Shown here piece by piece: positions 4,040 through 64,000 of a stretch of 64,000 nucleotides of DNA; positions within the stretch are counted from its first letter, which is position 1; every line of letters begins with the position of its first letter. This stretch comes from Minisyncoccota bacterium. Its GTDB lineage: Bacteria > Patescibacteriota > Minisyncoccia > Phycocordibacterales > UBA6899. A program made the translations under genes and the position numbers. The stretch covers positions 129,844 through 193,843 of the forward strand of contig DATEZQ010000003.1 of NCBI GenBank assembly GCA_035583355.1. Reading direction: 5' to 3'. Below the pieces are notes generated by a model. The model made no database searches. It was not told the origin of the DNA and saw nothing but the letters and a program-made list of their open reading frames with translations.

Positions 4040-4696
4040 ATGTTCACTCTTCTGCGTAGATTTTTCTATTCGAGCGCTCTCCTCGGCCTTCTTATTGGCC
4101 TCCCCCTCACCGCCCAAGAACACCGCTTGCACGCCGGTGTCTCCCTTTCCTGGGCGATTCCCTCCGGTGCGTTCGGTGGCAGTGACGGGTCTCGTGATTC
4201 GTACTACGATTACGGCCGCAGTCGTGTTCCTGGTTTCGCATCGACGGTGGGAGGCAGCGTCTTCATTGGCGTTCCTCTTGCCGAGCGCGTAGTGATTCGG
4301 CCGAATGCGAGCTATTTCCGCTTCCGTGGCGACGAGGGAGATCACTTCGGCTATCGTGCTACGCCGATGTCTCTCGAGATGTCGAGTGTCGGTTGCGATA
4401 TCCAGATCTTTTTCAGTCAGTCATGGAGGCAGTCACGCGGATATGTCCTCTTGGGTGTCGCTTACGATTCTGAGAAGCTTGCCATTGGCGGTAGGGCCTA
4501 TACAGACAGTGCGCCTGATCAGTACAAGGTCAAACGCAGTGCGGCGAATATCGCCTTTGGAAGGGTTTCGCGGATGGAAGGCGTCGGGGTATTCTACGAG
4601 GTAGGCTTCCATCGGACGCTTTCTGACGACATGCCTGCGGGGCTAGAGATGCCAGGCTCTGATTTCTGGAAGCTCGGCATTGGCGTTACGTTCTAA
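4040..4696 (+). CDS. putative 8-stranded outer-membrane beta-barrel protein (OmpA/OmpW-like fold)
   Basis: AGGAGG RBS. N-terminal signal peptide MFTLLRRFFYSSALLGLLIGLPLTAQE. Eight amphipathic beta-strand segments with alternating hydrophobic residues. Ends in the typical C-terminal ...GIGVTF (Phe). GC-rich. Confidence 0.55.
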   Translation: MFTLLRRFFYSSALLGLLIGLPLTAQEHRLHAGVSLSWAIPSGAFGGSDGSRDSYYDYGRSRVPGFASTVGGSVFIGVPLAERVVIRPNASYFRFRGDEGDHFGYRATPMSLEMSSVGCDIQIFFSQSWRQSRGYVLLGVAYDSEKLAIGGRAYTDSAPDQYKVKRSAANIAFGRVSRMEGVGVFYEVGFHRTLSDDMPAGLEMPGSDFWKLGIGVTF

Positions 4697-4700
4697 AATC

Positions 4701-4724
4701 AACCACCCTTCGGGGTGGTTTTTC
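4701..4724 (+). terminator. rho-independent terminator
   Basis: aaccaccc-ttcg-gggtggtt plus tttt. Confidence 0.7.
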
Positions 4725-5078
4725 TTGCGAGTGGTTGTGGTGTGTGTTAGATATAGAGCAGATTGTGAGTGGGAGGAAAACTTGCGAGAAGCAATAGCAA
4801 TTTTCGTAAATATATTTTGTTTTTGCTACTGTACAGCGCTTGCTTGTGGTAGTTTCGATTACTCGATTCCGAGAATCGATACACGCGGTTCTGCGCTTTC
4901 GCTACACCTTGGGCAATTTTGTTTGCATTCGAGTTCGACTCGCACATTTTCTTCTGGGTTAGTTTTTCGCGAAAGCACATCATTCGTGAATACTCCTCCC
5001 AAGCAGTATGACTTTACTTTTAAGTGCAGTGGTAATCACGCTAGTGCCCAAGCGCATGTGCACCCTTGTGTGTGTATC

Positions 5079-6160: not shown

Positions 6161-7669
6161 TTATTTCACACGGTATTTGTTGCGAATTTCCTTCACTTCT
6201 TTTTCTTCCTCACTTGCGCGAGTACGCTTCCCTTCTTCGCCTTTCGCAAGAAGTACCTCTTGAGGAAGCATCGCGAATTCTTTTGCGGTTCGCTCGAGCC
6301 ATTCGGTTGTATTGCGCTCGGGGTCCTCAAGCACCTCATCAAAGAGTGCATTGAGGATGGCACCAATGCGCGGACCTGCAGGTTCATCGATGGTCTCCAT
6401 GATTTTTGCACCATCAATCTTTAGCATCTTCACTGATACTGGCGCGCGCATCGCTTCTTCAATCATCGAGTGATATTTGCGCAAGCGATACGGTGTCTCC
6501 ATTGGACGTCCAGTTCCTATACGATCACATGCGCGCACATTCATAAGGTCCCAGACTAATTCAGGTCCGACATTCGCAACAATGCGACGCACTGCGGAGA
6601 GTGTGATCGTCTCTATATCAGAGAAGAACATGTGATAGCGCACGAGTTGTGTGGACTTGAAAATGATTTCGCGAGAATATCGAAGGCGCTCAAGAATTTT
6701 CTTCGCCATCTTTGCGCCGATTACTTCATGTCCATAGAATGTCCACGTCTTTTTCTCCTCTGACCACCTGCGTGATGCAGGTTTGCCAACATCATGAAGT
6801 AATGATCCGAGTCGAACATGAAGTGGCCAAGAGCGATCGGCTGCATGTTGAAGGGCTCGAAGATTGTGCTCCCATACGTCATAGATGTGGATTCCCTTCT
6901 GTTCGCACCCTAGCCCCTCGATAAGCTCAGGGCAAACATAGGTGAGTAAACCCACACGATGGAGGACAAGAATGCCTTCCATTGGTTTCGCACTCATGAG
7001 CATTTTTGAAAATTCGTCACGCACACGTTCCATGGCTATCTTCTCGACAAGCGGAGCGTGAGAAATTACTGCTTCAAGAGTTTTCTCCTCGATAGTGAAA
7101 TCAAGTTGTGCGACGAAACGCACCGCACGCATGACGCGAAGTGCATCCTCAGTGAAACGCAAGTGTGGATCACCCACAGCGCGGATGGTGCGCTTTTTGA
7201 TATCGCTTACTCCGTCGTAAGGATCGATGAGCTCATCACGGACGACATTATATGCGATAGCGTTCATAGTAAAGTCGCGACGCTGCAGATCCTCATAAAG
7301 GCTCTTTGAAAATTGCACGCTGTCAGGGCGGCGAAAATCGCTATATGTAGATTCTGTTCGATAGGGTGTTATCTCAACAATGCGCAACGTTGCACGTTCG
7401 GTATCATTCTCTGGGATTGTTTCATTTACTACTCCGACAGTGCCAAAATCATTCTCATAGAATGTATGGGGAAAAAGTTCGATAATCTCAGCAGGCGTGG
7501 CATTCGTGGTAAAGTCCCAATCTTTCGGAGTCTTTCCCTCGAGGAGATCTCGGGTGCAACCACCGACGAGATAAGCTTCGTAGCCTGCGGATTCAAGAGT
7601 GGAAGCAACGGATGAGATTTCGGGTGGGATATTTAGTAGGGGCATAGTTGTGTGTTGCACGTTAAACAA
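6161..7669 (-). CDS. cca: CCA-adding tRNA nucleotidyltransferase / poly(A) polymerase family with HD domain
   Basis: Class II nucleotidyltransferase N-terminus LVGGCTRDLL and a later HDVGK HD motif. Consistent with tRNA genes here lacking an encoded CCA. Confidence 0.8.
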   Translation of the reverse strand: MFNVQHTTMPLLNIPPEISSVASTLESAGYEAYLVGGCTRDLLEGKTPKDWDFTTNATPAEIIELFPHTFYENDFGTVGVVNETIPENDTERATLRIVEITPYRTESTYSDFRRPDSVQFSKSLYEDLQRRDFTMNAIAYNVVRDELIDPYDGVSDIKKRTIRAVGDPHLRFTEDALRVMRAVRFVAQLDFTIEEKTLEAVISHAPLVEKIAMERVRDEFSKMLMSAKPMEGILVLHRVGLLTYVCPELIEGLGCEQKGIHIYDVWEHNLRALQHAADRSWPLHVRLGSLLHDVGKPASRRWSEEKKTWTFYGHEVIGAKMAKKILERLRYSREIIFKSTQLVRYHMFFSDIETITLSAVRRIVANVGPELVWDLMNVRACDRIGTGRPMETPYRLRKYHSMIEEAMRAPVSVKMLKIDGAKIMETIDEPAGPRIGAILNALFDEVLEDPERNTTEWLERTAKEFAMLPQEVLLAKGEEGKRTRASEEEKEVKEIRNKYRVK

Positions 7670-8405: not shown

Positions 8406-8476
8406 CGCGGGTATGGTTTAGTGGTAGAATGCGTCCTTGCCAAGGACGAGACGGGAGTTCGATTCTCCCTACCCGC
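8406..8476 (+). tRNA. tRNA-Gly (anticodon GCC)
   Basis: GCGGGUA acceptor, anticodon arm CGUCC-UUGCCAA-GGACG, T-arm GGGAG-UUCGAUU-CUCCC, discriminator A. No CCA. Confidence 0.85.
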
Positions 8477-8484
8477 ACAGCACA

Positions 8485-8707
8485 GAAAAAACAGAGCAAA
8501 GCTCTGTTTTTTCTTTTGTGCTTGCGGGTAGGGAGAATCGAACGGAGAGGGGTCGGGAGAGGAAGCCTCTCCCGTCTAGGAGAGCAGGAGTTTCTTGTTT
8601 CACAAGAAACCCCGTCGAGAACCGTGGGTTCTCGAAGAACTTTGCCGTGCGGGCCCCTTTAGGGTGCGCGAGCAAAGTTCGTGAGATCTCTCCCCTCCCT
8701 ACCCAGG
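8485..8707. repeat. tRNA-3'-end-mimic element A, downstream of tRNA-Gly(GCC)
   Basis: Terminator hairpin at 8491-8505 with flanking A and T runs. Perfect 20/20 inverted copy of the tRNA 3' end at 8523-8542. Hairpins cgagaaccgtgggttctcg and gtgcgggcccctttagggtgcgc. Degenerate direct copy of the tRNA 3' end at 8677-8707. The core is about 75 percent identical to element B in the opposite orientation. Confidence 0.7.
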
Positions 8708-8750
8708 CAAAGCCTGGCTAGGGAGTCCCTGATGTTCCTGGGTTTGTTCA

Positions 8751-10980: not shown

Positions 10981-12000
10981 ATGAAAGAGCATTTAAACAA
11001 TCCAGAAGAGGAAATGTTTGCAGCATATGGTGAAGACCTTGGCGAGGCTCCACAAGGGGAGTCTGTTGAGGCTGAGCAGCAGTCTGCGGGAGAGGTCCTT
11101 GAGGATTCTCCTATTTCTGACGCTGATCGATATGCAGAGCAGGTGCTCGCGGGCCATTCTCCCGAAGAGAGGGCTGCTGTGGAGAGTATAGTTTCCTCTA
11201 TTGAGAACGTGTACGCAAAGGTAAGTTCTGATGACGTCTTGACCCGAGAAAAAGCTACGGAGGCTTTGCTGGGAACTGCGTTTGCAGCTGCACCAACCAC
11301 AGCCATGGGGCATGAGCAGGAACCATTGTGGAAGAAGGTTCTTACAGGGGCTTCACGGGGTGCCCACGGTGCAGTGAAGGCTCTGGCACTTACTGCAACT
11401 CTTGCAGCTCCTGCTGCAGCACAGGATTACAAGCATCCTAGCCCTGAGATTACTAAAAAAGTTGATTATATATTTGGATCGAGCATTATGGAGCGATTTG
11501 GTGATAGGCGTGGTCACTATAAGAAAGCCTATACAAATCTTGAGGTGCGAAAGAAATTTCTCATCCAGCAGCTTCATGATTTAACTGATGCTCGTCCAAG
11601 AAATACTGCAGAGGAGACTCATATTTTGCGTGTTGAGGCTGATCGTGATGCGAAGCTCGCAGCCCTCCGTGTCGAGCGTACGCTTGAAACTATGTCATTT
11701 GAGAGTCTGCATTCAAATAATCCTGTAGATAAGGCACAGTATGAGGCGAATATTGCCTCGATTGCTGCAAGAGAGGCTAGGGCAATAGAGGAGTGTGAGG
11801 CACAGCTGCTTGCAGAGCATCGTAAGGCGGTTCCAGTAAAGGAGGTTGAAGACTTGCGAAGAGAAATCATTCGAATTGAGAAGAGTGAGGATGAGATTGT
11901 CCAAAGATTCCTCGCGACCCGAAATAACTCGTATAGTTACGGCTCAAGCTGGGGGTTTGGTGGTGGAAGAAACTGGACGCAGTGGGATGGGTATAAATAA
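10981..12000 (+). CDS. hypothetical acidic, coiled-coil-rich protein
   Basis: 339-aa ORF, no family recognised. The ORFs overlapping it on the opposite strand were judged spurious. Confidence 0.5.
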   Translation: MKEHLNNPEEEMFAAYGEDLGEAPQGESVEAEQQSAGEVLEDSPISDADRYAEQVLAGHSPEERAAVESIVSSIENVYAKVSSDDVLTREKATEALLGTAFAAAPTTAMGHEQEPLWKKVLTGASRGAHGAVKALALTATLAAPAAAQDYKHPSPEITKKVDYIFGSSIMERFGDRRGHYKKAYTNLEVRKKFLIQQLHDLTDARPRNTAEETHILRVEADRDAKLAALRVERTLETMSFESLHSNNPVDKAQYEANIASIAAREARAIEECEAQLLAEHRKAVPVKEVEDLRREIIRIEKSEDEIVQRFLATRNNSYSYGSSWGFGGGRNWTQWDGYK

Positions 12001-12360: not shown

Positions 12361-12435
12361 GAGTATAGTGTAGCATATGGAGAAGGAGAAGAGGAGAAGA
12401 GGGGAGCAAGCGTTGCTTGCGAAGAATACGAGAAG

Positions 12436-12714
12436 CGCACCCTTTGGGTGCGGCCGGGGAATCGAACAAACTTTTCTCGCGCACTCCAGAGGAGCCTCGC
12501 GCGGAAAAGTTAAGACCGGGCAATCGAACAATCACTTGTTCGCGCACCCCGGAGGGGCCCCGCACGACAAGTGATTTCGAGAACCCACGGTTCTCGACGC
12601 TCGAGGACTCGCTGCTCTCCTACGCAAGAGAGGTACCCTCTCTTGGCATCTCTCCGTTCGAATCCCGGCGCCCCTAATAAAAAAGAAAAACTCCCTGAGG
12701 AGTTTTTCTTTTTT
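12436..12714. repeat. tRNA-3'-end-mimic element B, downstream of tRNA-Pro
   Basis: Direct degenerate copy at 12450-12467 (gcggccggggaatcgaac). Core hairpins gagaacccacggttctc and gcaccccggaggggccccgc. Perfect 19/19 inverted copy of the tRNA-Pro 3' end at 12656-12674. Terminator hairpin aaactccctgaggagttt at 12679-12714. Confidence 0.7.
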
Positions 12715-12718
12715 ATTG

Positions 12719-12791
12719 TCGGGGCGCCGGGATTCGAACCCGGAGTCATCCGCTCCCAAAGCGGACATGTTAGCCGTTACACCACGCCCCG
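12719..12791 (-). tRNA. tRNA-Pro (anticodon UGG)
   Basis: CGGGGCG acceptor, anticodon arm UCCGC-UUUGGGA-GCGGA, T-arm CCGGG-UUCGAAU-CCCGG, discriminator A. No CCA. Confidence 0.8.
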
Positions 12792-14102: not shown

Positions 14103-14383
14103 GCATTGCTTGAACTCCACCTTGCAGTTAATTTGCATTTGCAAATAAGTATCGTTAAACAGTTTCGCTCCTGTGCCGCTTGTGTAACATGTTAATTTAA
14201 CTATCGAATTGCTACATATTGTGCCGTGTAACACATGTAATTACGTAGCAGAGAGTGAAAAGTGCACTTTTGTGTGCTGTGAAACACCTTTCTGAGGTTA
14301 GGGTGCATTTGAGCCATGTTTCACATTACGCAGAAGAATTTCCCTTACACGCATAATAAAAACGCGACATAGTCGCGTTTTGT

Positions 14384-15154: not shown

Positions 15155-15225
15155 GCGGGTGTAGTTTAGTGGTAAAACTCCTGCCTTCCAAGCAGGTGTC
15201 GGGGGTTCGATTCCCCCTGCCCGCA
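15155..15225 (+). tRNA. tRNA-Gly (anticodon UCC)
   Basis: GCGGGUG acceptor, anticodon arm CCUGC-CUUCCAA-GCAGG, T-arm GGGGG-UUCGAUU-CCCCC, discriminator A. No CCA. Confidence 0.85.
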
Positions 15226-15232
15226 CAACAAA

Positions 15233-15460
15233 CAAAAAAGAAGCGAAAGCTTCTTTTTTGTTTTTGTTGTGACGGGCAGGGGGAATCGAAAGACGGAGCC
15301 GGGCACCGTCACCCGGCGCAGATTTTATCCGAGCTTCGCTCGTGATAAATCCAGCCGCGTGCACGGTCGGCGAGTCGGGGTCGCGAGCACTTAGTCGCAG
15401 CGAGCTTTGCGAAGCGAGACTTAGTGACTTGAGACCGATTCCCCAAATCCGATTTCGTGT
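15233..15460. repeat. tRNA-3'-end-mimic element C, downstream of tRNA-Gly(UCC)
   Basis: Terminator gaagc-gaaa-gcttc with A and T runs. Perfect 18/18 inverted copy of the tRNA 3' end at 15273-15290. GC-rich hairpins (ccgggcaccgtcacccgg ...). Degenerate direct copy near 15444-15456. Confidence 0.6.
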
Positions 15461-15483
15461 GCGAAGTACTCCATGAAACTCAA

Positions 15484-15594
15484 GCACGCAGTGTTTTAGT
15501 TTCCCTATGCATCGCAACGGGAAACATAAAGTGTTTTTAGTTTCCTCCTGCATTACATCGAAAGCACGCAGTGTTTAGTTTCATCTGCATCGTG
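15484..15594. repeat. three tandem repeats of about 35-40 bp upstream of the tfoX-like gene
   Basis: gcacgcagtgttttagtttccctatgcatcg, aaagtgtttttagtttcctcctgcattacatcg and gcacgcagtgtttagtttcatctgcatcgtg. Confidence 0.6.
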
Positions 15595-26755: not shown

Positions 26756-28510
26756 ATGCTCGCCGAGGAGATCAAATTGAAGAAATTTATTATCGATTCC
26801 GGTGTCATTTCACGCGCGGATATTCTTGCTGCAGAAAAGGAAGCAGAAAATAGCAGCAGCACGCTCGCGGAAACACTTGTAAAGCAAGGGAAGGTTACGG
26901 CAGATGACATGCGTCGCATGCAGGCTTATGTGCTTGGTATTCCTTATGTCGACCTTCGTGGACAAAAGATCGAAGCTGAGGTGCTCGCATTGGTTCCAGA
27001 ACCAATAGCGCGTAGACACAATATCGTTGCATTTCGACGCTCCGAACAGGGTCTCGAGGTTGCAATGCTCGACATCAATGACCTTGAAGCGATAGACTTT
27101 GTGCGCAAGAAGGTGGGTATTCGCATACTTACGAGACTCACGGACCGGGAGTCGATGAAATCAGTGCTTCTGCAGTATCAAAAGTCTCTTAAGGCGGAGT
27201 TTGGGGATATCATCCAACAGGAAGCAAAGGCGATGAAGGTGATTCGAGGTGAGTCAGGAGATGAGGCCGCGTCTGAAATGGACCTCAAGAAGCTTGCAGA
27301 AGATCTACCAGTGGTGCGTATCGTTGATACACTACTTAATCATGCAATCTTGCAGGGTGCGTCTGATATTCATATTGAGCCAATGGAGAACCAGCTCTTG
27401 GTGCGTTATCGTATTGATGGTATTTTGCATGACGCCATGGTGCTCCCAAAGGACACCGCTCCTGGCATTACCGCACGCGTTAAAGTGCTCTCGAACCTGA
27501 AGCTCGATGAGAAGCGTTTGCCGCAAGATGGACGCTTTAAGATCCAGCTTGATGCAGAAAAAGTTTCCTTCCGTGTATCGACATTGCCGACGCACTTTGG
27601 AGAGAAGACCGTCATGCGCCTCCTCCGTGAGTCATCAGGTGGATACACCCTTGAGGCCTTAGGCTTCCACGGTTATTCACTTGAGACATTGCATCAGGCA
27701 ACGAAACAGCATATTGGACTTATTCTTGTCACAGGTCCTACTGGTTCTGGTAAGACAACGACACTCTATACAATGGTCGACATCTTGAATACTCCTGATG
27801 TAAACATTTCTACCGTTGAGGATCCTATTGAGTATCAGATGCCACGTATTAATCAGACACAGATTAGGCAAGATATTGGTCTCACGTTCGCCGCCGGTTT
27901 GCGCTCACTCTTGCGCCAAGATCCTGACGTGATTATGGTTGGAGAAATTCGTGATGGTGAAACTGCATCGCTTGCTATTAATGCTGCACTCACTGGACAT
28001 CTCGTGCTTTCGACACTCCATACGAACTCTGCTGCAGGTGCGATTCCACGCTTCATCGATATGGGTGCTGAGCCATTCCTTATCGTTTCAACGGTGAATG
28101 TTGTTGTTGGACAGCGTCTTGTGCGCAGGCTCACTGCAGCGAAAGAGAAATATAATATGACCCCCGAGGAACTGCGCAATTTGTCTCGAGGAGTCAATAT
28201 GGATCGTTTGCTTGAAGCGCTCATCGAGGAAAAGATTGTGCCAAAGGACACAACTTGGGAGACGATGCCATTCTACAAGCCAAAGCCTGGTGCTGATAGT
28301 GAAGACGGCTATAAGGGCCGTATTGGTATCCATGAGGTGCTCAAAATGTCTACGATGCTTCGCGAGCTCGCACTGAAGAATGCTCCAGCCGAGCAGATCG
28401 AGACGCAGGCACGTAAGGAAGGAATGTTTACGATGCTCGAGGATGGTATATTTAAAGCGGTGATGGGTCTGACAACCATAGAGGAAGTGTATCGTGTTGT
28501 GAATGAATAA
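26756..28510 (+). CDS. pilB: type IV pilus assembly ATPase PilB/GspE family
   Basis: Walker A GPTGSGKTT, GEIRD, an Asp box and the tetracysteine-less C-terminus of a PilB-like protein. TATAAT at 26741-26746 suggests a leaderless start at 26756. The ORF track starts at 26708. Confidence 0.85.
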   Translation: MLAEEIKLKKFIIDSGVISRADILAAEKEAENSSSTLAETLVKQGKVTADDMRRMQAYVLGIPYVDLRGQKIEAEVLALVPEPIARRHNIVAFRRSEQGLEVAMLDINDLEAIDFVRKKVGIRILTRLTDRESMKSVLLQYQKSLKAEFGDIIQQEAKAMKVIRGESGDEAASEMDLKKLAEDLPVVRIVDTLLNHAILQGASDIHIEPMENQLLVRYRIDGILHDAMVLPKDTAPGITARVKVLSNLKLDEKRLPQDGRFKIQLDAEKVSFRVSTLPTHFGEKTVMRLLRESSGGYTLEALGFHGYSLETLHQATKQHIGLILVTGPTGSGKTTTLYTMVDILNTPDVNISTVEDPIEYQMPRINQTQIRQDIGLTFAAGLRSLLRQDPDVIMVGEIRDGETASLAINAALTGHLVLSTLHTNSAAGAIPRFIDMGAEPFLIVSTVNVVVGQRLVRRLTAAKEKYNMTPEELRNLSRGVNMDRLLEALIEEKIVPKDTTWETMPFYKPKPGADSEDGYKGRIGIHEVLKMSTMLRELALKNAPAEQIETQARKEGMFTMLEDGIFKAVMGLTTIEEVYRVVNE

Positions 28511-28511
28511 A

Positions 28512-28531
28512 AAACATAGCTTTGCTATGTT
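28512..28531 (+). terminator. pilB terminator
   Basis: aacatagc-tttg-ctatgtt plus T-run. Confidence 0.65.
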
Positions 28532-28566
28532 TTTTATTTTCACATCACGAGACACTCCTCAAGTTC

Positions 28567-28680
28567 GCGGCACTGGCCTTTTTGCCGGGGGCTGCCTCAC
28601 GCTTCGCCTTCGCCGTACCACTGTACGTCGTCAGGCTCCAGCGAGGCAGCCGCCGACAAAAATGCTCAGTGTTTCATAGT
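28567..28680 (+). promoter_or_regulatory. conserved structured intergenic element, copy 1 (upstream of pilC)
   Basis: About 75 percent identical to 62033-62145. Outer stem GGCUGCCUC/GAGGCAGCC and inner hairpin CGUAC-cacu-GUACG. Copy 2 shows compensatory changes in both stems. Conserved 3' tail aaaaatgctcagtgtttcat. Confidence 0.55.
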
Positions 28681-28745
28681 TTGGGAGATGCAATGCACTG
28701 CGACTTTGTCGCAGAGGAAATACAATTCATGGTATTATTAAGACA

Positions 28746-29966
28746 ATGACGAAGTTCCAGTACAAGGCACAATTGATTGCGACAGCAGGAGAGGTTGGTG
28801 GAGTTGCTGAAGCGAAGGACAAGTTTGAGCTCGCCCATAAGCTCAAAGATGAGGGCAAGCTGCTTATTTCTGCTACTCCAGTCACTGGCTTCCATTTCAA
28901 TATGGATGCAATCAATGCACACCTCACGCGTGTGGACTTGCGAGACAAGATTCTACTTGCGAATAATCTCGCGACAATGATTCAGGCAGGACTTCCTCTT
29001 TCTCGTGCGCTCGGTATCATCTTGAAGCAAACGACAAATCCAAAGTTGAAGCAGGTGCTCGCAAGTCTCGTCGATAGTATCAACAAAGGAATGACGCTTT
29101 CTGATGCACTGAATAAGTTCCCAGATATCTTCCCTGATGTGTTTATTTCTATGGTGCGTGCAGGTGAAGAGTCAGGTGGGCTTGTGGAGGCATTACAAGT
29201 AGTAGGTGGGCAGATGGAAAAGACCTATACCCTTACGAAGAAGGTGAAGGGTGCAATGATGTATCCGATGGTGGTCACGACAGTTATGATTGCGGTGGGT
29301 GTCCTCATGATGATCTATGTTGTTCCGGGCCTCGCGCAGACATTTGCCGAAGCGAACGTCGCACTCCCTACACTGACAAAAATATTCATTGTTACCGCAG
29401 ACTTCTTGAAAAATGACAGTATCGTTGCTGCGATTTCTCTTGTCGTACTTATTGTTGGAGTAGTGCTTTTCAAGCGTACAAAGGTGGGAAACCGCACATT
29501 CGCATTTGTCGCACTTAAGGTGCCCGTATTCGGTATTTTAGTGAAGCAGTACAATACCGCTCTTGTGACACGTACGCTGTCATCACTTATTTCCTCGGGA
29601 GTAGATATTGTGCGTGCAATTGATATCACGCGAGATGTCTCGAGCAATGTCTTCTATCGTGAAACACTTGATGCAGCAAAAGAAGACGTTCAGAAGGGTG
29701 TACCACTCTCTCAGTCATTTGTGAAGAATGCACAGATTTACCCACTCATGGTTGGTGATATGATGGAAGTGGGCGAGGAGACAGGACAGCTCTCGCAGAT
29801 GCTCAAGAAGATTGCTACGTACTATGAGCAGGAAGTCGAGCAAGCAACGAGCGATATGAGTAAACTCTTTGAGCCTATTCTTATGGTTATGATTGGTACG
29901 TTCGTTGGACTCTTTGCAATGGCAATGATTAGTCCGATGTACTCGATTATGTCGACCATTAATTAA
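28746..29966 (+). CDS. pilC: type IV pilus inner-membrane platform protein PilC/GspF family
   Basis: Two GspF repeats, polytopic membrane protein, 406 aa. Confidence 0.85.
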   Translation: MTKFQYKAQLIATAGEVGGVAEAKDKFELAHKLKDEGKLLISATPVTGFHFNMDAINAHLTRVDLRDKILLANNLATMIQAGLPLSRALGIILKQTTNPKLKQVLASLVDSINKGMTLSDALNKFPDIFPDVFISMVRAGEESGGLVEALQVVGGQMEKTYTLTKKVKGAMMYPMVVTTVMIAVGVLMMIYVVPGLAQTFAEANVALPTLTKIFIVTADFLKNDSIVAAISLVVLIVGVVLFKRTKVGNRTFAFVALKVPVFGILVKQYNTALVTRTLSSLISSGVDIVRAIDITRDVSSNVFYRETLDAAKEDVQKGVPLSQSFVKNAQIYPLMVGDMMEVGEETGQLSQMLKKIATYYEQEVEQATSDMSKLFEPILMVMIGTFVGLFAMAMISPMYSIMSTIN

Positions 29967-41029: not shown

Positions 41030-42733
41030 GTGGATATGTTGGGGATACTACTCTATTACGCTGCTAGTATCATGGAGTATACTCAACTGATGCCTCGCAT
41101 CCGTGACTACTTACTGCCTTCTCTCTTTGCATTCGCGTGTGGCGCAATTATTGGCGTATACACGAATTATGCACTTATGTTTGGATTGATTATCGGAACA
41201 AGTGTGCTTATTGTGCTACCACGGATATTCAAAGGTAATTACCCGCTTACGCGCATTCTATTTATTGCATTGTTTGTATTTGTGCTTGGAGTGTTTAGGG
41301 GAGCAGCACTCCACGATCAATTTGATTGTTCTCTGCTCTGCGCAAAGGTAAATACGCTCGTTAGCGTGGTGGGTGTCGTAGATAGAGAGCCAGAGTTTCG
41401 TGATGGGTCAGAGCGTTTTGTGGTCCGACTTACAGAAGCAAATGACATACGTGTACAGGCGAACATACAGCATGCTCCAAGTCTTTCTTACGGCACAGAG
41501 GTACGCCTTACAGGAATACTTCGCGAACCCGAAGATTTTGAAGGTATAACCGGGGCCTTGTTCCGATATAAAGACTTTTTACATGCACGGGGCATTATGT
41601 ATGTAATGAATAATGCACGCGTGGAAAGTTTAAGATACGATCAAGGGAATTCTGTTATTGGACTCCTGCTTTCCTTCAAGCAAAAGATAAAAGAAATTTG
41701 TGATCGGTTGCCTTCCCCCGAAAGTGGATTGTTGATGGGAATGATCTTTGGAGGAAAAAATGGACTCCCGGCAAACATACAAGATGATTTTCGTATTGCA
41801 GGAATCATTCATATTGTAGTGCTCTCCGGAGAAAATCTCACGATCATTGCGTTGCTTGTTATGTGGGTCATTCGAAAGTTTCTTGGATTCTACACGGGTA
41901 TCATGGTGTCGGCGTTTGTTATATCCCTCTATGCAATTATTGGAGGAATGGAGCCCGCAACAATGCGTGCGTTAGTGATTGTGCTACTGGTATTCGTTGC
42001 GACACTTTTGCGCAGAGAGGTAAGTCTCCCGCGAATACTTTTTATTGGTGCGATGCTCCTCATTGTGTACAATCCGTTATTGCTTTTTGATGACCCGAGT
42101 TTCCAGCTTTCCGTGCTCGCAATGCTCGGGCTTATATTCATTGGACCGATCATTGAGCGCAGTTTGCTTACTCGTGGTATCCCGCTCCTGTTTACGAGTT
42201 ATCTCGCGCCAATTTTTGCAGCGCAATTGGGGGTGTTGCCGTATATCATGTATACGAGTCAGTCATTTGCTTCGTATGCATTTCTTGCGAATGCGCTCGT
42301 CCTGTTCATTATCGGTTTTCTCTCAATTGGCGGAATGGTAGTCGTTGCTATTGGATGGGTGCTACCGTCGTTGCTTTCGATTATTGCGTTTCCTGTGGTA
42401 ATCGCACTCAGTGCAGTACTTCATATTGCTCATGGTATCGCGCAATTGCCCTATGCAGCATTACCTCTACATATTTCAGGATGGTTCACCGCCACGGTTT
42501 ATCTGTTTGTCAGCGTATGGATATTCAGAAGGTATCACGATGGAACACTTACTCCACTTGCGCTCTTTACACTCAAGGAAGAGGTAAAACAGATTGCGAA
42601 AAGAAAAATCCCTTGGGCACCTCCAATTCCAGATGTGCAAGGGATTCAGTTTAATCATCTTGATTTTGTTTTTGTGGCGGAGCAGCGGAAGGAGAAAGTC
42701 GATACGGAGCGAACCATTTGCTGGGATGATTGA
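41030..42733 (+). CDS. comEC: DNA internalization competence protein ComEC/Rec2, membrane channel part without MBL domain
   Basis: DUF4131-like N-terminus, a competence domain and polytopic TM helices. 567 aa, with no C-terminal metallo-beta-lactamase domain. Confidence 0.75.
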   Translation: MDMLGILLYYAASIMEYTQLMPRIRDYLLPSLFAFACGAIIGVYTNYALMFGLIIGTSVLIVLPRIFKGNYPLTRILFIALFVFVLGVFRGAALHDQFDCSLLCAKVNTLVSVVGVVDREPEFRDGSERFVVRLTEANDIRVQANIQHAPSLSYGTEVRLTGILREPEDFEGITGALFRYKDFLHARGIMYVMNNARVESLRYDQGNSVIGLLLSFKQKIKEICDRLPSPESGLLMGMIFGGKNGLPANIQDDFRIAGIIHIVVLSGENLTIIALLVMWVIRKFLGFYTGIMVSAFVISLYAIIGGMEPATMRALVIVLLVFVATLLRREVSLPRILFIGAMLLIVYNPLLLFDDPSFQLSVLAMLGLIFIGPIIERSLLTRGIPLLFTSYLAPIFAAQLGVLPYIMYTSQSFASYAFLANALVLFIIGFLSIGGMVVVAIGWVLPSLLSIIAFPVVIALSAVLHIAHGIAQLPYAALPLHISGWFTATVYLFVSVWIFRRYHDGTLTPLALFTLKEEVKQIAKRKIPWAPPIPDVQGIQFNHLDFVFVAEQRKEKVDTERTICWDD

Positions 42734-43361: not shown

Positions 43362-46300
43362 GTGGTAAATTTGGTTAATGGACATAAGGGAAGGCACGTG
43401 TCAACTCAGGCCTTCTGCCTGATTATGGAATATAATAGGCATATGCTATTGCTCCCAAAGTTCGAAGAGGATTATCAGCGCTTAACCTCGCTTCAGAAGG
43501 AGGTGGTGGACACCGTTGATGGACCACTTATGGTCGTTGCGGGGCCAGGTACCGGAAAGACACAGGTGCTTGGACTTCGTGTCGCAAATATTTTGAAAAC
43601 GCGGGACGTTTCCCCAAACAATATTCTCTGCCTGACCTTCACTGATGCAGGTGCAGTGAATATGCGCGAACGCCTCGAGCGCTTCATCGGTGCTGATGCA
43701 TATCGTGTCGGAATTTATACGTTCCATGCATTTTGTAATGCAACGATTGGAAGGCATCCAGAATATTTTTACAATGCAGCGACCTATGCTGCTGCTGATG
43801 ATATTGCGCGCGCAGAAATCGTTGAACAGCTTTTCGTAAAGTTGCCACATCGACATCCGCTTGCAAGCTATCATCCCGATGAGGGATTCGTCTATCGTCG
43901 TGACGTGATGGAGCGCATTAAGCACATCAAATCAGCGGGCTTCACGCCGGACGAATATATTCGAGAAGTGGAAGCGTATGCAAAAGAGATGCCAAAAGCA
44001 AGCAAGGTGCTTGCCTCGTGGCCAGATCGTCTTGCGATCAAATCGCTCGCTCCTATCGAACAGATTCTTGGCGAACTCCTCGCAATCGGAACAAGTTATA
44101 GCCTCTTCCTCGCAAAGACACTTTCTGTCGCTTATGAGGAAGCTCGAGATTTAGGAAAGACGGGGCCGCTTGGAGATTGGAAAAAGAAATTCACCGAGAA
44201 GGGAGATGATGAGGTGGTAGTCCTCAAAGATCTCGGCCGCATCGAGAAGATGCGTGCGGTTGCAGCGATGTACAAAGACTATGAGGATGCACTTCATGAG
44301 CGTGCGCTCTATGATTATGATGACATGATCATCGATGTCCGATGCGCACTTGAGGAGAATAGTACGTTGCGTAATGTGCTTGAAGAACAATATCAATATA
44401 TCCTTGTCGATGAGTTCCAGGACACCAATGAAGCGCAGATGAAATTGGTCGTCGCACTCTCTTCGAATCCTGTACATGAGGGCAGGCCGAATGTGATGGT
44501 GGTGGGCGACGACGATCAGGCTATCTTCAAGTTTCAGGGAGCTGAGCTTTCGAACATTCTCAATTTCGAGCGCATGTACAAGGATGTACAGACGATCGTG
44601 CTTGATAAGAACTTCCGCTCACACAAAGATATTCTTGATGCAGCACGTAAGGTGGTGCTTCAGGGTTCGTATCGTCTCGAAACGGTAAAGAAGATATCGA
44701 AGGAGCTTGTGCAGGGGAACAAGGATTTGAAGACCGGGAACGTGACGTATAAGCAATATGGCTCAGATATTGAAGAATTTGCCGCTGTCGCCGCAGCAAT
44801 TGCTGCACAAATCGCAAGGGGCGAGGATCCAAAGGAGATTGCAGTTATTGCGCACAAGCATGCGCAGCTTCAGGATTTTCTTCCGTACCTTGAGCGCGAG
44901 GGTGTGCCGTATTCGTATATACGTCGCGCGAGCGTCTTCGATGAGCCGCATATTCACGAATTGATTACCGTTTGTGATTATCTCGCATCACTGTCGGGAG
45001 AGGGAGTGCGCAAAGATGAACTCCTTCCGCAAATTCTCACACTCCCCACATTTGGTTTGTCACGCACGATGCTCTTTCGCATTGCAGTGCGTGCGAAGGA
45101 CGAGCGCAAGAGCTGGTCTGAAGTCATTGGGGAAATGGAGGATGCGCCGATCCAAAATGCATTTGCATTACTTGCAAAGCTTGGTGGTAGCGCCGAGAGC
45201 ATGCCGCTTGAACATTTGCTCGACGAGTATATGCGTGAGTCGGGATTCCGTACGCACTACTTTGGGAAGGATGCACTCAAGGAGAAGCCTGCACAGTATG
45301 TCGCCTTCCTCGCATCGCTGAAGACATTCATCGAAGCACTGCGCGGTTGGCGTGAGGGTGAACCACTCTTTGCGCGCGACGTTGCACCATTCGTGGCGCT
45401 CCACAAAGAGCAGGGCATTGGCCTCGTGAGTACTTCACCATTTGTCAAAGGTGGACGAGCGGTACAGGTCATGTCCGCACACAAGAGTAAGGGACTTGAG
45501 TTTGGTAGCGTATTTATTATCGGAGCGCATGAGTCCGTATGGGCAAAGGGTGGGCGAGCGAATAAGGCTCCGGTGCCTGCACCACTTGTGCCACGCATCT
45601 CTCCAGCAGGAGAGGACGAAGATGATTTCATTCGTATACTCTATGTTGCACTTACGCGTGCAAAACACACACTCTCGGTGACGGGACATAATAAGCTAGT
45701 GAAGTATCTCGGCGAGATCAGTGATGTTCCCGAGGAAGATGCAAAACTCGATATCGACTCCGAAGAAGGAGCGCGAGCTATTCTCGCGCATGAACAAGTG
45801 CTTTCTTTGACTGCAGCCCCGTATGTCGAGGATGAGTTAGCGGTGCTTAAAGAAGCGCTCAGTGATTATCGTCTGTCAGTGACCCATCTCAATAATTTCC
45901 TTGATGTGACTGCTAATGGTCCCGCATATTTTCTTGAGCAAAACCTGTTGCACTTCCCGCAACCGATGAGTGTGGCAAGTACATTTGGTTCGGCTATTGA
46001 TACTGCGCTCACCGAGCTCGTGCGCTATCCGAAATATAATGCGGGGGAGTCTGCGCCACTTGAGCGACTTATTGCGGTGTTTAAACGTGAACTCGCAAAA
46101 GGGCGACTACCTCAGGATGAGGCACGTAAGCAAATTCGCCGCGGAGAAGAAGTGCTTGCCGCATATGTTGGAGCAAAGAAGGGGTATTTCCAAATCGAGG
46201 ATGAAGCGCAAGTGGACTTCCGTAATGAAGGTGTGGTGATCGAAGGCGCTCCACTTTCCGGAAAGATCGACCTTTTGCGCCAGGAAGCAGGGGAATTCCA

Positions 46301-46670
46301 TGTTGTCGACTTCAAAACGGGGAAGGAGAGCGAGCGCTGGGATGGCCCGGGCATGGATCAGCACGAGAAGATAAAATTGCATAAATATAAGCAGCAACTT
46401 ATGTTCTATCAGTTGCTCCTTAATAAGAGTGCGCGTCATGCGATTCCAGTGGCGTCGCTTGCGCTTGAATTCGTCGAGAGCGCAGTTGATGGGCCTGTCG
46501 TCAGTTTGAGTTTCAAGCCAGCTGATGAAGACCTTGAGCGACTTTCACATTTGATTGGTATCGTCTATAAGAAGATTATGGCACTTGATTTCCCTGATGT
46601 TACGCACTATGAACAGAGCGTAAGGGGTATTAATGCTTTCGAGGAAGATCTCCTTAGTGGAAAAATCTAA
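43362..46670 (+). CDS. UvrD/PcrA-like helicase fused to a C-terminal PD-(D/E)XK nuclease (AddA-like)
   Basis: Walker A AGPGTGKT, motif II DEFQDTN, VVDFKTGKE nuclease motif. An alternative start lies near 43425. Confidence 0.8.
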   Translation: MVNLVNGHKGRHVSTQAFCLIMEYNRHMLLLPKFEEDYQRLTSLQKEVVDTVDGPLMVVAGPGTGKTQVLGLRVANILKTRDVSPNNILCLTFTDAGAVNMRERLERFIGADAYRVGIYTFHAFCNATIGRHPEYFYNAATYAAADDIARAEIVEQLFVKLPHRHPLASYHPDEGFVYRRDVMERIKHIKSAGFTPDEYIREVEAYAKEMPKASKVLASWPDRLAIKSLAPIEQILGELLAIGTSYSLFLAKTLSVAYEEARDLGKTGPLGDWKKKFTEKGDDEVVVLKDLGRIEKMRAVAAMYKDYEDALHERALYDYDDMIIDVRCALEENSTLRNVLEEQYQYILVDEFQDTNEAQMKLVVALSSNPVHEGRPNVMVVGDDDQAIFKFQGAELSNILNFERMYKDVQTIVLDKNFRSHKDILDAARKVVLQGSYRLETVKKISKELVQGNKDLKTGNVTYKQYGSDIEEFAAVAAAIAAQIARGEDPKEIAVIAHKHAQLQDFLPYLEREGVPYSYIRRASVFDEPHIHELITVCDYLASLSGEGVRKDELLPQILTLPTFGLSRTMLFRIAVRAKDERKSWSEVIGEMEDAPIQNAFALLAKLGGSAESMPLEHLLDEYMRESGFRTHYFGKDALKEKPAQYVAFLASLKTFIEALRGWREGEPLFARDVAPFVALHKEQGIGLVSTSPFVKGGRAVQVMSAHKSKGLEFGSVFIIGAHESVWAKGGRANKAPVPAPLVPRISPAGEDEDDFIRILYVALTRAKHTLSVTGHNKLVKYLGEISDVPEEDAKLDIDSEEGARAILAHEQVLSLTAAPYVEDELAVLKEALSDYRLSVTHLNNFLDVTANGPAYFLEQNLLHFPQPMSVASTFGSAIDTALTELVRYPKYNAGESAPLERLIAVFKRELAKGRLPQDEARKQIRRGEEVLAAYVGAKKGYFQIEDEAQVDFRNEGVVIEGAPLSGKIDLLRQEAGEFHVVDFKTGKESERWDGPGMDQHEKIKLHKYKQQLMFYQLLLNKSARHAIPVASLALEFVESAVDGPVVSLSFKPADEDLERLSHLIGIVYKKIMALDFPDVTHYEQSVRGINAFEEDLLSGKI

Positions 46671-46675
46671 TTCAA

Positions 46676-46703
46676 AACCCACCAGTATCTGCTGGTGGGT
46701 TTT
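46676..46703 (+). terminator. rho-independent terminator
   Basis: aaacccaccag-tatct-gctggtgggttt plus T. Confidence 0.7.
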
Positions 46704-55588: not shown

Positions 55589-55639
55589 GGAGGTATTGTA
55601 GCAGAAGAAGGAGGAGGGGAGAAGAAGCAAAAAATACAA

Positions 55640-55745
55640 GGGAATAAGGGGATAAGGGGATAAGGATGGAAGAAATTCGGTTATTTCTACTTTGGTCTGT
55701 TTTGTATTTAACCTCATTCCCTCATTCCCTTATACCCTTATTCCC
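55640..55745. repeat. long imperfect inverted repeat upstream of the M50 protease gene
   Basis: Left arm gggaataaggggataaggggataagg at 55640-55665. Right arm cctcattccctcattcccttatacccttattccc at 55712-55745. About 22 of 26 positions pair, with a 46-bp spacer. Confidence 0.7.
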
Positions 55746-55834
55746 TGCATTGAGCATTTTCTCCATTAACGCCTTGCCTTTTTCGTACTTATGTGATAAT
55801 CTGCCAAGTACTTAACGCAATTAATCTTATACGT

Positions 55835-61472: not shown

Positions 61473-61943
61473 ATGCGTCGACCAGTAAAGAATCGTAATA
61501 TCCGCCAGGCGGACTTCAAGTACAACTCACTTGATATCTCACAGCTCGTAAACTACGTCATGTGGGATGGTAAGAAGACAATCGCAGAGGCAGTCGTTTA
61601 TGACTGTATGGATGAGATTGCAAAGAAGACAAAGGTGGAGAATCCATCTGAAGTCCTCAAGGCAGCTATCCAGAACGCAGGTCCTTTGATCGAAATCCGT
61701 TCACGTCGTGTCGGTGGTGCAAACTACCAGGTTCCACGTGAGGTTCGTGACGAGCGTCGCCGTTTCCTCGCTCTCCGTTGGATCATCGGTGCAGCTCGTG
61801 CAAAGAAGGGTGTCAAAATGGCAACCAAGCTTGCAGATGAGATCATCGCAGCATCAAAGAATGAAGGTGAGGCTATTAAGAAGCGCGACAACGTGCACAA
61901 GATGGCCGAAGCAAATAAGGCGTTCGCGCACTTTGCTTGGTAA
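61473..61943 (+). CDS. rpsG: 30S ribosomal protein S7
   Basis: Typical S7, 156 aa. Confidence 0.95.
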   Translation: MRRPVKNRNIRQADFKYNSLDISQLVNYVMWDGKKTIAEAVVYDCMDEIAKKTKVENPSEVLKAAIQNAGPLIEIRSRRVGGANYQVPREVRDERRRFLALRWIIGAARAKKGVKMATKLADEIIAASKNEGEAIKKRDNVHKMAEANKAFAHFAW

Positions 61944-61946
61944 TAA

Positions 61947-61978
61947 AAATGAACCCCTACTCGGGGTTCATTTTTATT
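61947..61978 (+). terminator. rpsG terminator
   Basis: aatgaacccc-tact-cggggttcatt plus tttt. Confidence 0.75.
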
Positions 61979-62032
61979 ACCAAGAGCGCGAACGCCTTAT
62001 TTGCTCCGCCCATCTTCGTCGTGACCATATTT

Positions 62033-62145
62033 ACGGCACTGGTCTTTTTCGCGTGATCGTCTGCTTTTCGCTTTCGCGGTACCATTGTACCGCTTCAAGC
62101 TCCAAAGCTAGACGCTGACGCGAAAAATACTCAGTGTTTCATGTT
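62033..62145 (+). promoter_or_regulatory. conserved structured intergenic element, copy 2 (upstream of the pilin-RCC1 gene)
   Basis: Homologous to 28567-28680. Outer stem CGCGUGAUCGUC/GACGCUGACGCG and inner hairpin GGUAC-cauu-GUACC, with tail aaaaatactcagtgtttcat. Confidence 0.55.
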
Positions 62146-62252
62146 GTTGGTTGTGTGGCTTCGAAATCTGGGCGGTTTCATAATATAGACCTTGCGTCTC
62201 AGTAAAAAAATCACATAAGTTTCAGTGAAGTCTACATGCTATAATTCCACTA

Positions 62253-63851
62253 ATGAATTCTCGGATCAGTCTCGGCTTCACGCTCATTGAGCTCCTTGTT
62301 GTTATTGCGATCATCGCACTGCTTTCAAGTGTTGTGTTCTCTGCTTTGACGACTGCACGCGTGAAGGCGCGTGATGCGAGTCGCATCGCAAACGCACGAC
62401 AGCTCTCGCTCGCGCTCGAACAATATGAAATGACCAATGGTACCTATGCAGTCGCAGGCGCGGGGTATCAAGGAACCGGATCGGGTTATGCCTCATATGT
62501 CGGTGGTATTGATTACACAACCTCGATCGTTTCTGCTTTGAAGTCTTCGGGGACATATTCGTCCTCAAAACTTTCCGACCCACTCTATGGTGATCAGAAC
62601 TATTTCATCGGTCGCTGTACGACAACGCTTGCATACACCTTGTATCTCAAGGTTGAACAGGACGCATTGAAGCAAGATGCTGCAGCGCTCTCTTCGGGTT
62701 GTGATGGTGCAACTGCAGTGAGCCTCGGTTTTAATTATGTCGCAGGCGGTAGTGGAGTTGGTGCATTTGGTGGCGGAATTGCGGGAGGGGGTGGAGGAGG
62801 TGCTCCATCACCAAAAATTTCAATTGGATACTCACACGCAATGGCGCTGGTCGGAGGATCACTCTATTTGTGGGGCAATGATGATAATGGAACGCTTGGG
62901 TTTAATCGCGCAGGTACAAAATCATTTCCGACGCAGATGGGGTCTTCTACCGATTGGAAGGATATTAGTGCAACGATGTTTGATTCATTTGCGATTAAAA
63001 ATAATGGAGAGCTATATGCAACTGGGTACAATAATCACGGGCAACTTGGCTTCGGCGACGTGACACAGCGCAATGTGTTTACGAAAGTCGGTGCAGATAC
63101 TTGGTCGAGCATTGTTGGTGGTCAGTACTATACACTTGGAATAAAAACCGATGGAACACTTTGGGCATGGGGGTATGGACAGTTCAACTCTCTTGGTCTT
63201 GCTACAACATCAGACATTCTCTTGCCTACTCAGGTAGGTACTGCGAATGACTGGAAGTCCATATCAGCTGGATTTTACTCTTCTGCGGGAATCAAAAATG
63301 ATGGTTCGTTGTGGACTTGGGGTTATAACGCTTATGGCCAACTTGGTCTCAATAATACGACTGCACAACCGGTGCCAGTGCGTGTGGGTAGTGATACTGA
63401 TTGGAAAAAAATAAGTATGGGATATGGCATTCTCATGGCAATCAAGAATAATGGCACGTTGTGGGCTTGTGGTGACAACACTTCGGGAAGACTTGGATTT
63501 GGCGATACTGCAATCAGGAGCGTGCTGACACAGCTTGGCACGGACACATGGAATGATATATCGGTCGGTAATGGTTTTCAGCACGGAGTAAAATCTAATG
63601 GAACGCTTTGGGCGTGGGGAGTACAGGGGTCAAGTCAGCTCGGTCTTGGAGATGCGGTAACACGCACCGTGCCGACACAGGTTGGTAGTGCAAGTGACTG
63701 GAAGTTCGTCTATGACAATTTGTATGCAAGCGTTATTGCGCAGAAAGTTGGTGATACTCTTTATTCATGGGGATACGGTGGAAATGGGGTGCTTGGTCTC
63801 GGAAATTTCTCGAACTACAATCTTCCTCAAGCGCTCACTCCTCCGTGGTGA
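62253..63851 (+). CDS. prepilin-type N-terminal domain protein fused to RCC1-repeat beta-propeller
   Basis: Prepilin motif G/FTLIELLVVIAIIALL, then repeated GQLGLG/GRLGFG RCC1 blades. TATAAT at 62240-62245 lies 7 nt upstream of the ATG. Confidence 0.75.
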   Translation: MNSRISLGFTLIELLVVIAIIALLSSVVFSALTTARVKARDASRIANARQLSLALEQYEMTNGTYAVAGAGYQGTGSGYASYVGGIDYTTSIVSALKSSGTYSSSKLSDPLYGDQNYFIGRCTTTLAYTLYLKVEQDALKQDAAALSSGCDGATAVSLGFNYVAGGSGVGAFGGGIAGGGGGGAPSPKISIGYSHAMALVGGSLYLWGNDDNGTLGFNRAGTKSFPTQMGSSTDWKDISATMFDSFAIKNNGELYATGYNNHGQLGFGDVTQRNVFTKVGADTWSSIVGGQYYTLGIKTDGTLWAWGYGQFNSLGLATTSDILLPTQVGTANDWKSISAGFYSSAGIKNDGSLWTWGYNAYGQLGLNNTTAQPVPVRVGSDTDWKKISMGYGILMAIKNNGTLWACGDNTSGRLGFGDTAIRSVLTQLGTDTWNDISVGNGFQHGVKSNGTLWAWGVQGSSQLGLGDAVTRTVPTQVGSASDWKFVYDNLYASVIAQKVGDTLYSWGYGGNGVLGLGNFSNYNLPQALTPPW

Positions 63852-63891
63852 TGAGCGTAGTACGAGCACACGTTATGCTATACTTTATATA

Positions 63892-64000
63892 TGAGTAATC
63901 CAATTACACCTATTGTTCCAGCAGAGAAGATACATATATTGCTTGCTGATGATGATGAGATGACCTTGCGCCTGTTTAGTTCATATCTTGTCGAGGCGGG
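63892..64000 (+). CDS. response regulator receiver domain protein (5' partial, runs off the window)
   Basis: MSNPITPIVPAEKIHILLADDDEMTLRLF... Confidence 0.5.

Follow-up and report, generated by a model that had tools for sequence, protein, structure and literature searches.

ERIC, RUP, Correia, bcr1 and SPRITE are small interspersed palindromic repeats (PMC3184786, PMC3049150). The MITE-like ERIC, RUP and Correia types (PMC3184786) share several properties with the element described here, two copies of which lie in the 64,000-nucleotide stretch of DNA that was analysed (the window). Both are 100-150 bp long and non-coding, form one long imperfect hairpin with paired ends, and occupy intergenic positions, often just past genes, that are patchy among related genomes (PMC3184786). 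However, the element has covarying termini rather than inverted repeats of conserved sequence, a target duplication (TA or otherwise) is not demonstrable, the copy number is seemingly low, and the element resides in a CPR host, where it adjoins a mirrored 3' end of the upstream gene. The bcr1 repeat of the Bacillus cereus group (~150 bp) resembles the element in its non-conserved genomic distribution and in the compensatory changes that maintain its predicted structure, whereas bcr1 is distinguished by 5-bp direct repeats and by documented transcription (PMC3184786). SPRITE is alike in length (~105 nt), in its location near gene 3' ends or between convergent genes and in having a stem followed by a U-containing tract, for which an auxiliary-terminator role has been proposed; its sequence is rich in A+T, its stem measures 18 bp and its U-rich tract is long (PMC3184786, PMC3049150), whereas the element has a G+C content of 46-59% (42% in the L026 copy), a stem of ~45-50 bp and only UUUCWU after the stem. 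Integron attC sites are also imperfect palindromes of variable sequence and conserved structure, with a fixed orientation downstream of genes and with bulged bases in the lowest part of the stem. An attC identity was nevertheless rejected, as the R''/R' cores (RYYYAAC, GTTRRRY) are missing, the element ending in ACGGCAC... and ...CAGTGTTTCAT, and neither a cassette array nor an IntI-type integrase lies next to any copy.

As in MITEs, the element is small, non-coding and dispersed in multiple copies (~140 nt, nine copies, four loci), and it is polymorphic for presence and absence among close relatives; a cognate transposase with matching ends was not found among ~36 window proteins. It departs from a classical MITE in its covarying termini, in having no demonstrable target duplication and in lacking a partner transposase. 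We place it in the broad kind of interspersed palindromic repeats, its status as a MITE not being proven. No description of small interspersed hairpin repeats in Patescibacteria was found in the literature. Patescibacteria have tiny genomes, which are thought to contain few repeats and little regulatory RNA. The reading that we prefer, and that we hold to have an even chance of being correct, is a new terminator-proximal interspersed hairpin repeat family of Paceibacteria with putative effects on expression via read-through transcripts. In its favour, the size, the hairpin shape, the position at gene 3' ends and the patchy distribution match those of ERIC, RUP, bcr1 and SPRITE (PMC3184786, PMC3049150). 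As set out below, it is also supported by nine copies at four independent loci, by positional orthologues at the pilB-pilC, rpsG and rpoD loci, by copy types that do not follow locus, by one copy in a stretch missing from the window and from L021, by the lack of a promoter and of a strand bias in wobble pairs, and by compensatory changes in neighbouring palindromes that have a coding arm.

The sequence-only reading had pointed out two homologous 115-bp blocks of about 75 percent identity at 28567-28680 and 62033-62145. Both blocks are present at these positions and their homology is supported, with a mean column identity of 73% in a MAFFT alignment of wider regions and a blastn match of 77.8% over 81 nt (E = 5e-8) between copy 1 and copy 2. 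The outer stems (GGCUGCCUC/GAGGCAGCC in one block and CGCGUGAUCGUC/GACGCUGACGCG in the other), the inner stems (CGUAC..GUACG and GGUAC..GUACC) and the common 3' end aaaaatRctcagtgtttcat were found as that reading had quoted them. With the covariance model described below (R1) and the predicted folds, copy 1 (c1) was delimited to 28562-28699 on the + strand (full R1 match, cmsearch 133.7 bits), with the hairpin at ~28569-28675 and a G/T-rich tail at ~28676-28699, and copy 2 (c2) to 62028-62167 on the + strand (151 bits), with the hairpin at ~62035-62139 and the G/T-rich tail at ~62140-62167. Neither blastn nor R1 identified a third copy in the 64-kb window. The neighbouring genes were assigned by Pfam as those of PilB (T2SSE), PilC (T2SSF), S12, S7 and a pilin with N_methyl and RCC1 repeats.

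Each block is similar to its own reverse complement (75-77% identity over ~105 nt) and folds into a single long imperfect hairpin of ~105 nt followed by the G/T-rich tail. The RNA folds of copies 1 and 2 have energies of -59.9 and -51.8 kcal/mol (range over both strands -52 to -63). On the + strand the z scores are -5.1 for copy 1 and -7.0 for copy 2, compared with -5.9 and -8.9 for the - strand, and none of 200 shuffled sequences folded equally well; with DNA parameters the z scores are -7.0 and -8.1. Logan contigs of SRR5177929 end beside both copies, at the start of L008 (window 28745) and at the end of L023 (window 61945), breaks that are likely to be better explained by long palindromes than by repeat collapse.

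The search for further copies in relatives that the sequence-only reading had suggested was productive. Related loci were gathered via homologues of RpoD, PilC and S7, and R1, built on eight copies, was run with cmsearch over ~260 kb of related DNA, yielding nine distinct copies in total, the two of the window included, at four independent loci and no other matches. A single scan of the genome collection and a single scan of the metagenome collection, queried with the conserved ends, returned one true match each (L005 and L007, respectively), and viral contigs, phages and plasmids gave no match. Besides c1, between pilB and pilC, and c2, after rpsG, the copies comprise four located after rpoD, namely L005 (the same as L013; JAJZQJ01 MAG and ENA contig), L007 (JGI metagenome contig), L010 and L012 (both Logan contigs); two on a single ENA groundwater contig, namely L020a between pilB and pilC, which is the orthologue of c1, and L020b after pilC; and L026, which lies after rpsG on a JGI contig and is the orthologue of c2. 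All are intergenic, lie directly past the 3' end and intrinsic terminator of pilB, rpsG, rpoD or pilC, and are always oriented like the upstream gene; the four copies at the rpoD locus sit between the terminators of two convergent genes, rpoD and an NTPase gene. The family is confined to a narrow Paceibacteria (Patescibacteria/CPR) clade. Its low density, with 1-2 copies per 20-64 kb sampled, counts against an interspersed repeat. Only in L007 is a 285-aa gene (245-1102, on the minus strand of the locus) found between the element and the NTPase gene; its predicted product looks like an Mrr-type restriction endonuclease, and a leaderless-type promoter of its own lies 30 nt past the element tail.

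Covariation was tested on a model-based alignment of the nine copies, covering 38 stem pairs, with shuffle controls. Standard pairs occupy 92.4% of the pair cells compared with 76% after shuffling, and a displacement of the partners by 1-3 columns lowers pairing to 36-48%. The compensatory changes that had been claimed from the two window copies were borne out, with double changes in 24 of the 38 pairs across the nine copies and an observed covariation score that was reached by 0/500 shuffles. Covariation extends to all five helices; in the basal stem, CACTGG/CAGTG is replaced by CACCGG/CGGTG, CATTTG/AAATG and GCGACGA/TCTTCGC, and the hairpin is retained at ~35-55% sequence divergence via paired changes in each helix. 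The ends GGCACTGGTCTTTTT and AAAAATNCTCAGTGTT are inverted repeats that are identical in five of the nine copies and change in compensated fashion in L010, L020a, L026 and L020b, suggesting that pairing rather than sequence is maintained. The copies also share two unpaired motifs (5'-side UUCG and 3'-side CUCCA), an internal loop of 2x2, a single bulged U close to the base and the one-sided G/T-rich tail. The stem is followed by UUUCAU, except for UUUCUU in L020a and GUUCAC in L026.

Several of these features count against a mobile repeat: the termini covary where conserved transposase-binding inverted repeats would be looked for, the bulges, the UUCG and CUCCA loops and the one-sided tail are conserved in all copies, and the copy at the rpoD locus persists across several genomes. 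Conserved loops and a persistent rpoD copy are expected of a functional RNA or of a protein-binding structure. It is possible, if distinctly tentative, that the copies form a true structured non-coding RNA gene family, encoding protein-binding or trans-acting small RNAs whose paralogues are kept by selection. Function would then reside in the shape of the hairpin, in its conserved internal loops and in the G/U-rich 3' tail. The very strong covariation in all five helices, the invariant unpaired motifs and conserved asymmetry, and a position that is conserved after rpoD in four genomes as well as at pilB-pilC and rpsG all speak for such a family. Similar hairpins with a GUAC..GUAC apex and a 3' UUUCAU, found downstream of rpoD in more distant genomes, point the same way. 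These ~85-nt hairpins (L011 ~6750-6850 and L014 ~11556-11650, in loci whose RpoD is 73-79% identical) have the layout GCGAACTCCTAGGT...GTAC..GTAC...CCGTCGGATTTCATC, covary with each other and are built like the element. With filters off, R1 scored them at only 8.7 and 5.7 bits, and they are at most putative homologues of the element.

The distribution of wobble pairs bears on the choice between RNA and DNA. With the outermost two pairs excluded, the non-Watson-Crick cells comprise 7 G.U and 10 A.C on the + strand and 15 others; as an A.C cell corresponds to a G.U on the - strand, no strand bias is evident (7 vs 10), in counts that are small and not independent. These overall counts speak against an RNA gene family and are consistent with a structure maintained in DNA. 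On the side of the RNA, + strand G.U pairs at columns 44:104 and 48:100 recur in several diverged copies, whereas all A.C cells are singletons.

A sigma-70-type promoter was not found on either strand at the three loci searched. Upstream of the element, the 25-60 nt that separate it from the terminator of the preceding gene consist of a mirrored gene end that differs at each locus, and a + strand promoter therefore has no room. The lack of a promoter on either strand and the lack of space on the + strand weigh against an RNA gene family, as does the absence of an Rfam family for the element. The latter left intact the novelty that had been proposed for it: an Rfam 15 gathering scan of the window returned only 4 tRNAs, and an E-value scan of 28450-28800 only weak generic hairpin (miRNA) matches. 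The element was also not called as an intrinsic terminator by the terminator scan. A resemblance to SRP RNA or 6S RNA was dismissed as superficial, the GUCAGG...AGCAGCC-like stretch being present in c1 only, not in c2, with no Rfam hit. Protein coding was likewise rejected: the minus strand starts ATGAAACACTGA (M-K-H-stop), longer frames would require TGA read-through, of which the window genes, without sign of TGA recoding, give no indication, frames are shifted between copy types by 1- and 2-nt indels, and L012 and L020a have no candidate start codons.

The relationships among the copies do not follow their loci. c1 is 95% identical to the L005 copy at the rpoD locus and only 66-68% identical to its positional orthologue L020a, compared with 80-82% for the flanking pilB/pilC coding DNA; similarly, c2 shares 86-90% identity with the rpoD-locus copies of L010 and L012 and 64-67% with its positional orthologue L026. 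Locus thus does not predict copy type, which stands against a set of RNA paralogues. Positional orthologues of the element are known at the pilB-pilC (L020a), rpsG (L026) and rpoD loci. The equivalent loci of a close relative lack the element, a further point against an RNA gene family: it is absent from the pilB and pilC flanks in L021 and from the regions after rpoD and rpsG in GCA_964386905.1 (two loci, ~37 kb). The L020b copy lies within a stretch of ~260 bp that the same site in the window and in L021 does not have. In this single filled/empty comparison, of L020b with the window and with L021, the junctions are A/T-rich and may read TAA/TAAA. The other copies are not flanked by any consistent direct repeat, and a target-site duplication is not demonstrable. 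A long target duplication consisting of a direct duplicate of the upstream gene end was rejected as not general across loci, since a duplicate past the element is significant only at the L026 rpsG locus (0/300 shuffles), marginal at tRNA-8407 and L020b and absent at the remaining loci.

In L026 a decayed direct copy of the rpsG 3' end (78%) and a second terminator follow right after the element (4694-4729), giving the order gene end, mirror, element, gene end once more. In both the window and L026, rpsG has no fusA downstream (window 61943-62253 vs L024 10471-10965), and in the element-free GCA_964386905.1 rpsG is followed by two small ORFs and then fusA; as the rpsG-fusA order is kept only in the element-free relative compared, the element appears to sit at a break in the str operon.

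The mirrored gene ends form palindromes of 80-125 nt that have the intrinsic terminator of the upstream gene at their centre, the left arm being the last 20-45 nt of the coding sequence and the right arm, past the T-run, an inverted duplicate of that coding end. The palindrome 5' of c1 (28481-28561, + strand; DNA fold z = -12.5, supported by the arm alignment) has a left arm composed of the last ~30 nt of pilB, an A-run and the terminator stem, and a right arm composed of the T-run and the mirrored pilB 3' end. In the palindrome 5' of c2 (61899-62016, + strand; DNA fold z = -15.7), the last 45 nt of rpsG and its terminator are mirrored past the T-run, with arms that are 91-100% complementary. 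Further examples were found at L026 4425-4549, L020 9816-9881 and L013 11348-11411. At the pilB, rpsG and rpoD loci the element begins 7-17 nt beyond the mirrored gene end; no mirrored gene end was found at the pilC-downstream copy L020b. Compensated changes at synonymous sites were observed in 8/38 pairs of the rpsG palindrome relative to L026 and in 5/29 pairs of the pilB palindrome relative to L020, and the mirrored arms therefore track the synonymous changes of their own gene. Of the five longest gene-end palindromes of the window, two adjoin the element and the others belong to tRNA genes (8407, 12791 and 15155); long gene-end palindromes are absent from the element-free loci L009, L011, L021 and L024.

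At 8457-8745, 12430-12739 (minus strand) and 15206-15520 of the window, a tRNA gene is followed by a terminator, a mirrored tRNA 3' end that is up to 100% complementary, and a different structured block. These G+C-rich, multi-hairpin blocks are ~200 nt long each, two of them share 65 nt at 85% identity, and E-value scans of Rfam gave no match for them. The window also encodes a CCA-adding enzyme (6161-7669), which fits tRNA genes without an encoded CCA.

Since the mirrored arm lies beyond the U-run of the terminator, an RNA-level explanation of these arms is unlikely. DNA-level template switching or fold-back copying in palindromes seems to be at work in these genomes, and such a process could equally keep the arms of the element complementary. 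Because palindromes with a coding arm covary in the same way, covariation is weakened as proof of a functional RNA, a further argument against the RNA gene family. Of the view that covariation pointed to a functional RNA, the strong paired changes stand, and the conclusion is weakened by the lack of a promoter, the absence of wobble bias and these covarying palindromes. The family is thus a clean case in which extensive covariation may have arisen without an RNA function, and it calls for caution in practice when RNAs are sought by covariation in genomes of this kind.

We consider it rather unlikely that the element is purely a DNA-level palindrome, acting as a cruciform or single-strand hairpin with no role in transcripts. 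The hairpin would stall replication or be cut, and fold-back priming at the nearest terminator hairpin would mirror the gene ends, a proposal to which we attach the same low probability; that the element persists and is homogenised by template switching is no more probable in our estimate. The restriction of long mirrored gene ends to sites beside the element or beside the structured blocks at tRNA genes, the arms that follow the synonymous changes of their own gene, the unbiased wobble pairs and the very stable DNA folds agree with a palindrome of this sort. However, template switching alone would erase the bulges and loops, which are identical in diverged copies, neither the one-sided tail nor the fixed orientation with respect to the upstream gene is accounted for, and the fold-back repair step is itself conjectural. 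A related and quite improbable proposal is that the element is a structure-specific mobile element or recurrent break site, inserted or repaired next to a terminator by snap-back priming on the terminator hairpin, a step that would yield an inverted copy of the 3' end of the upstream gene. If this were true, snap-back priming would be a so far undescribed CPR mechanism that builds 80-125-nt gene-end palindromes at both protein and tRNA genes. The mirrored gene ends may be either footprints of insertion or repair, or selected features; if they were footprints of insertion or breakage, they would point to a new DNA-level mechanism worth testing.

Under the preferred interpretation as a terminator-proximal repeat family, the repeat unit would comprise the ~105-nt hairpin and a G/T-rich tail of ~30 nt, and the family would spread, or be overwritten, by copying between terminator-proximal sites, either through non-autonomous transposition or through gene conversion between loci. 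Template switching inside the palindrome, a process in DNA, would maintain the complementarity of the arms at least in part and would also give rise to the mirrored gene ends next to it. Selection would preserve the conserved bulges and internal loops, for instance against the instability of long perfect palindromes or for recognition by a structure-specific protein. In read-through transcripts, the ~50 bp imperfect duplex with UUUCWU could form a second 3' hairpin that acts as a barrier or stabiliser, and this hairpin might insulate the next gene without any regulation specific to pili.

The pilus genes had been the basis of the original proposal, in which the element was a cis-regulatory leader, small RNA or cruciform operator common to pilus-gene promoters, an explanation that we now regard as highly improbable. 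In its favour, the pilB-pilC copy is kept in L020, and both window copies precede pilus genes with leaderless starts: the blocks end 66 and 108 nt before the ATG, in accordance with the 60-110 bp given previously. The ATGs of pilC and of the pilin-RCC1 gene lie 7 nt past the putative extended -10 boxes TGGTATTAT (box, spacer and ATG at 28730-28748, + strand) and TGCTATAAT (62237-62255, + strand; gene assigned by Pfam), and both genes look leaderless from this arrangement. However, the same element follows rpoD in four genomes and pilC in one, and the four copies at the rpoD locus lie between convergent genes with no gene of the same orientation downstream. L021, in which PilC is 87% identical and three other genes lie between pilB and pilC, shares the pilC promoter (TGTGGTATTATTAAGTCAATG) and has no element, showing that this promoter is independent of the element. 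Moreover, no element precedes two pilin-like paralogues in L013 (17328-20291) or the pilin-like gene at 46695 of the window, and the distance between element and promoter differs in every case. The claimed tie to pilus genes and their promoters thus did not hold, and pilus-specific regulation by the element was rejected.

A response-regulator gene had also been placed at 63892; its predicted product has a receiver-like N-terminus, and the sequence is too short for confirmation by Pfam. This putative gene has a -10 box, TGCTATACT, 7 nt before its ATG (63876-63894). Like the starts of pilC and the pilin-RCC1 gene, its start has no Shine-Dalgarno sequence, and leaderless starts look common here.

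Retrons, IS200/IS605 ends and class C group II introns were excluded together with attC sites, because the defining sequences or partner genes are missing. Pfam searches of ~36 of the 67 candidate window ORFs gave no transposase, HUH enzyme or reverse transcriptase, and the sole recombinase among these proteins is an Xer-like tyrosine recombinase (1181-2125). ComEC and an AddA-like helicase-nuclease are also encoded in the window (41030-42733 and 43362-46670). A parS site was rejected for the element, in which TGTTTCA is the only half-site, with no adjoining GTGAAACA. Elsewhere in the window, an inverted repeat with AGGGAATAAGGGGATAAGG-type arms 54 nt apart is found at 55639-55746, and GTGAAACA and TGTTTCAC, which are parS-like half-sites in swapped order, lie 30 nt apart at 14267-14336.
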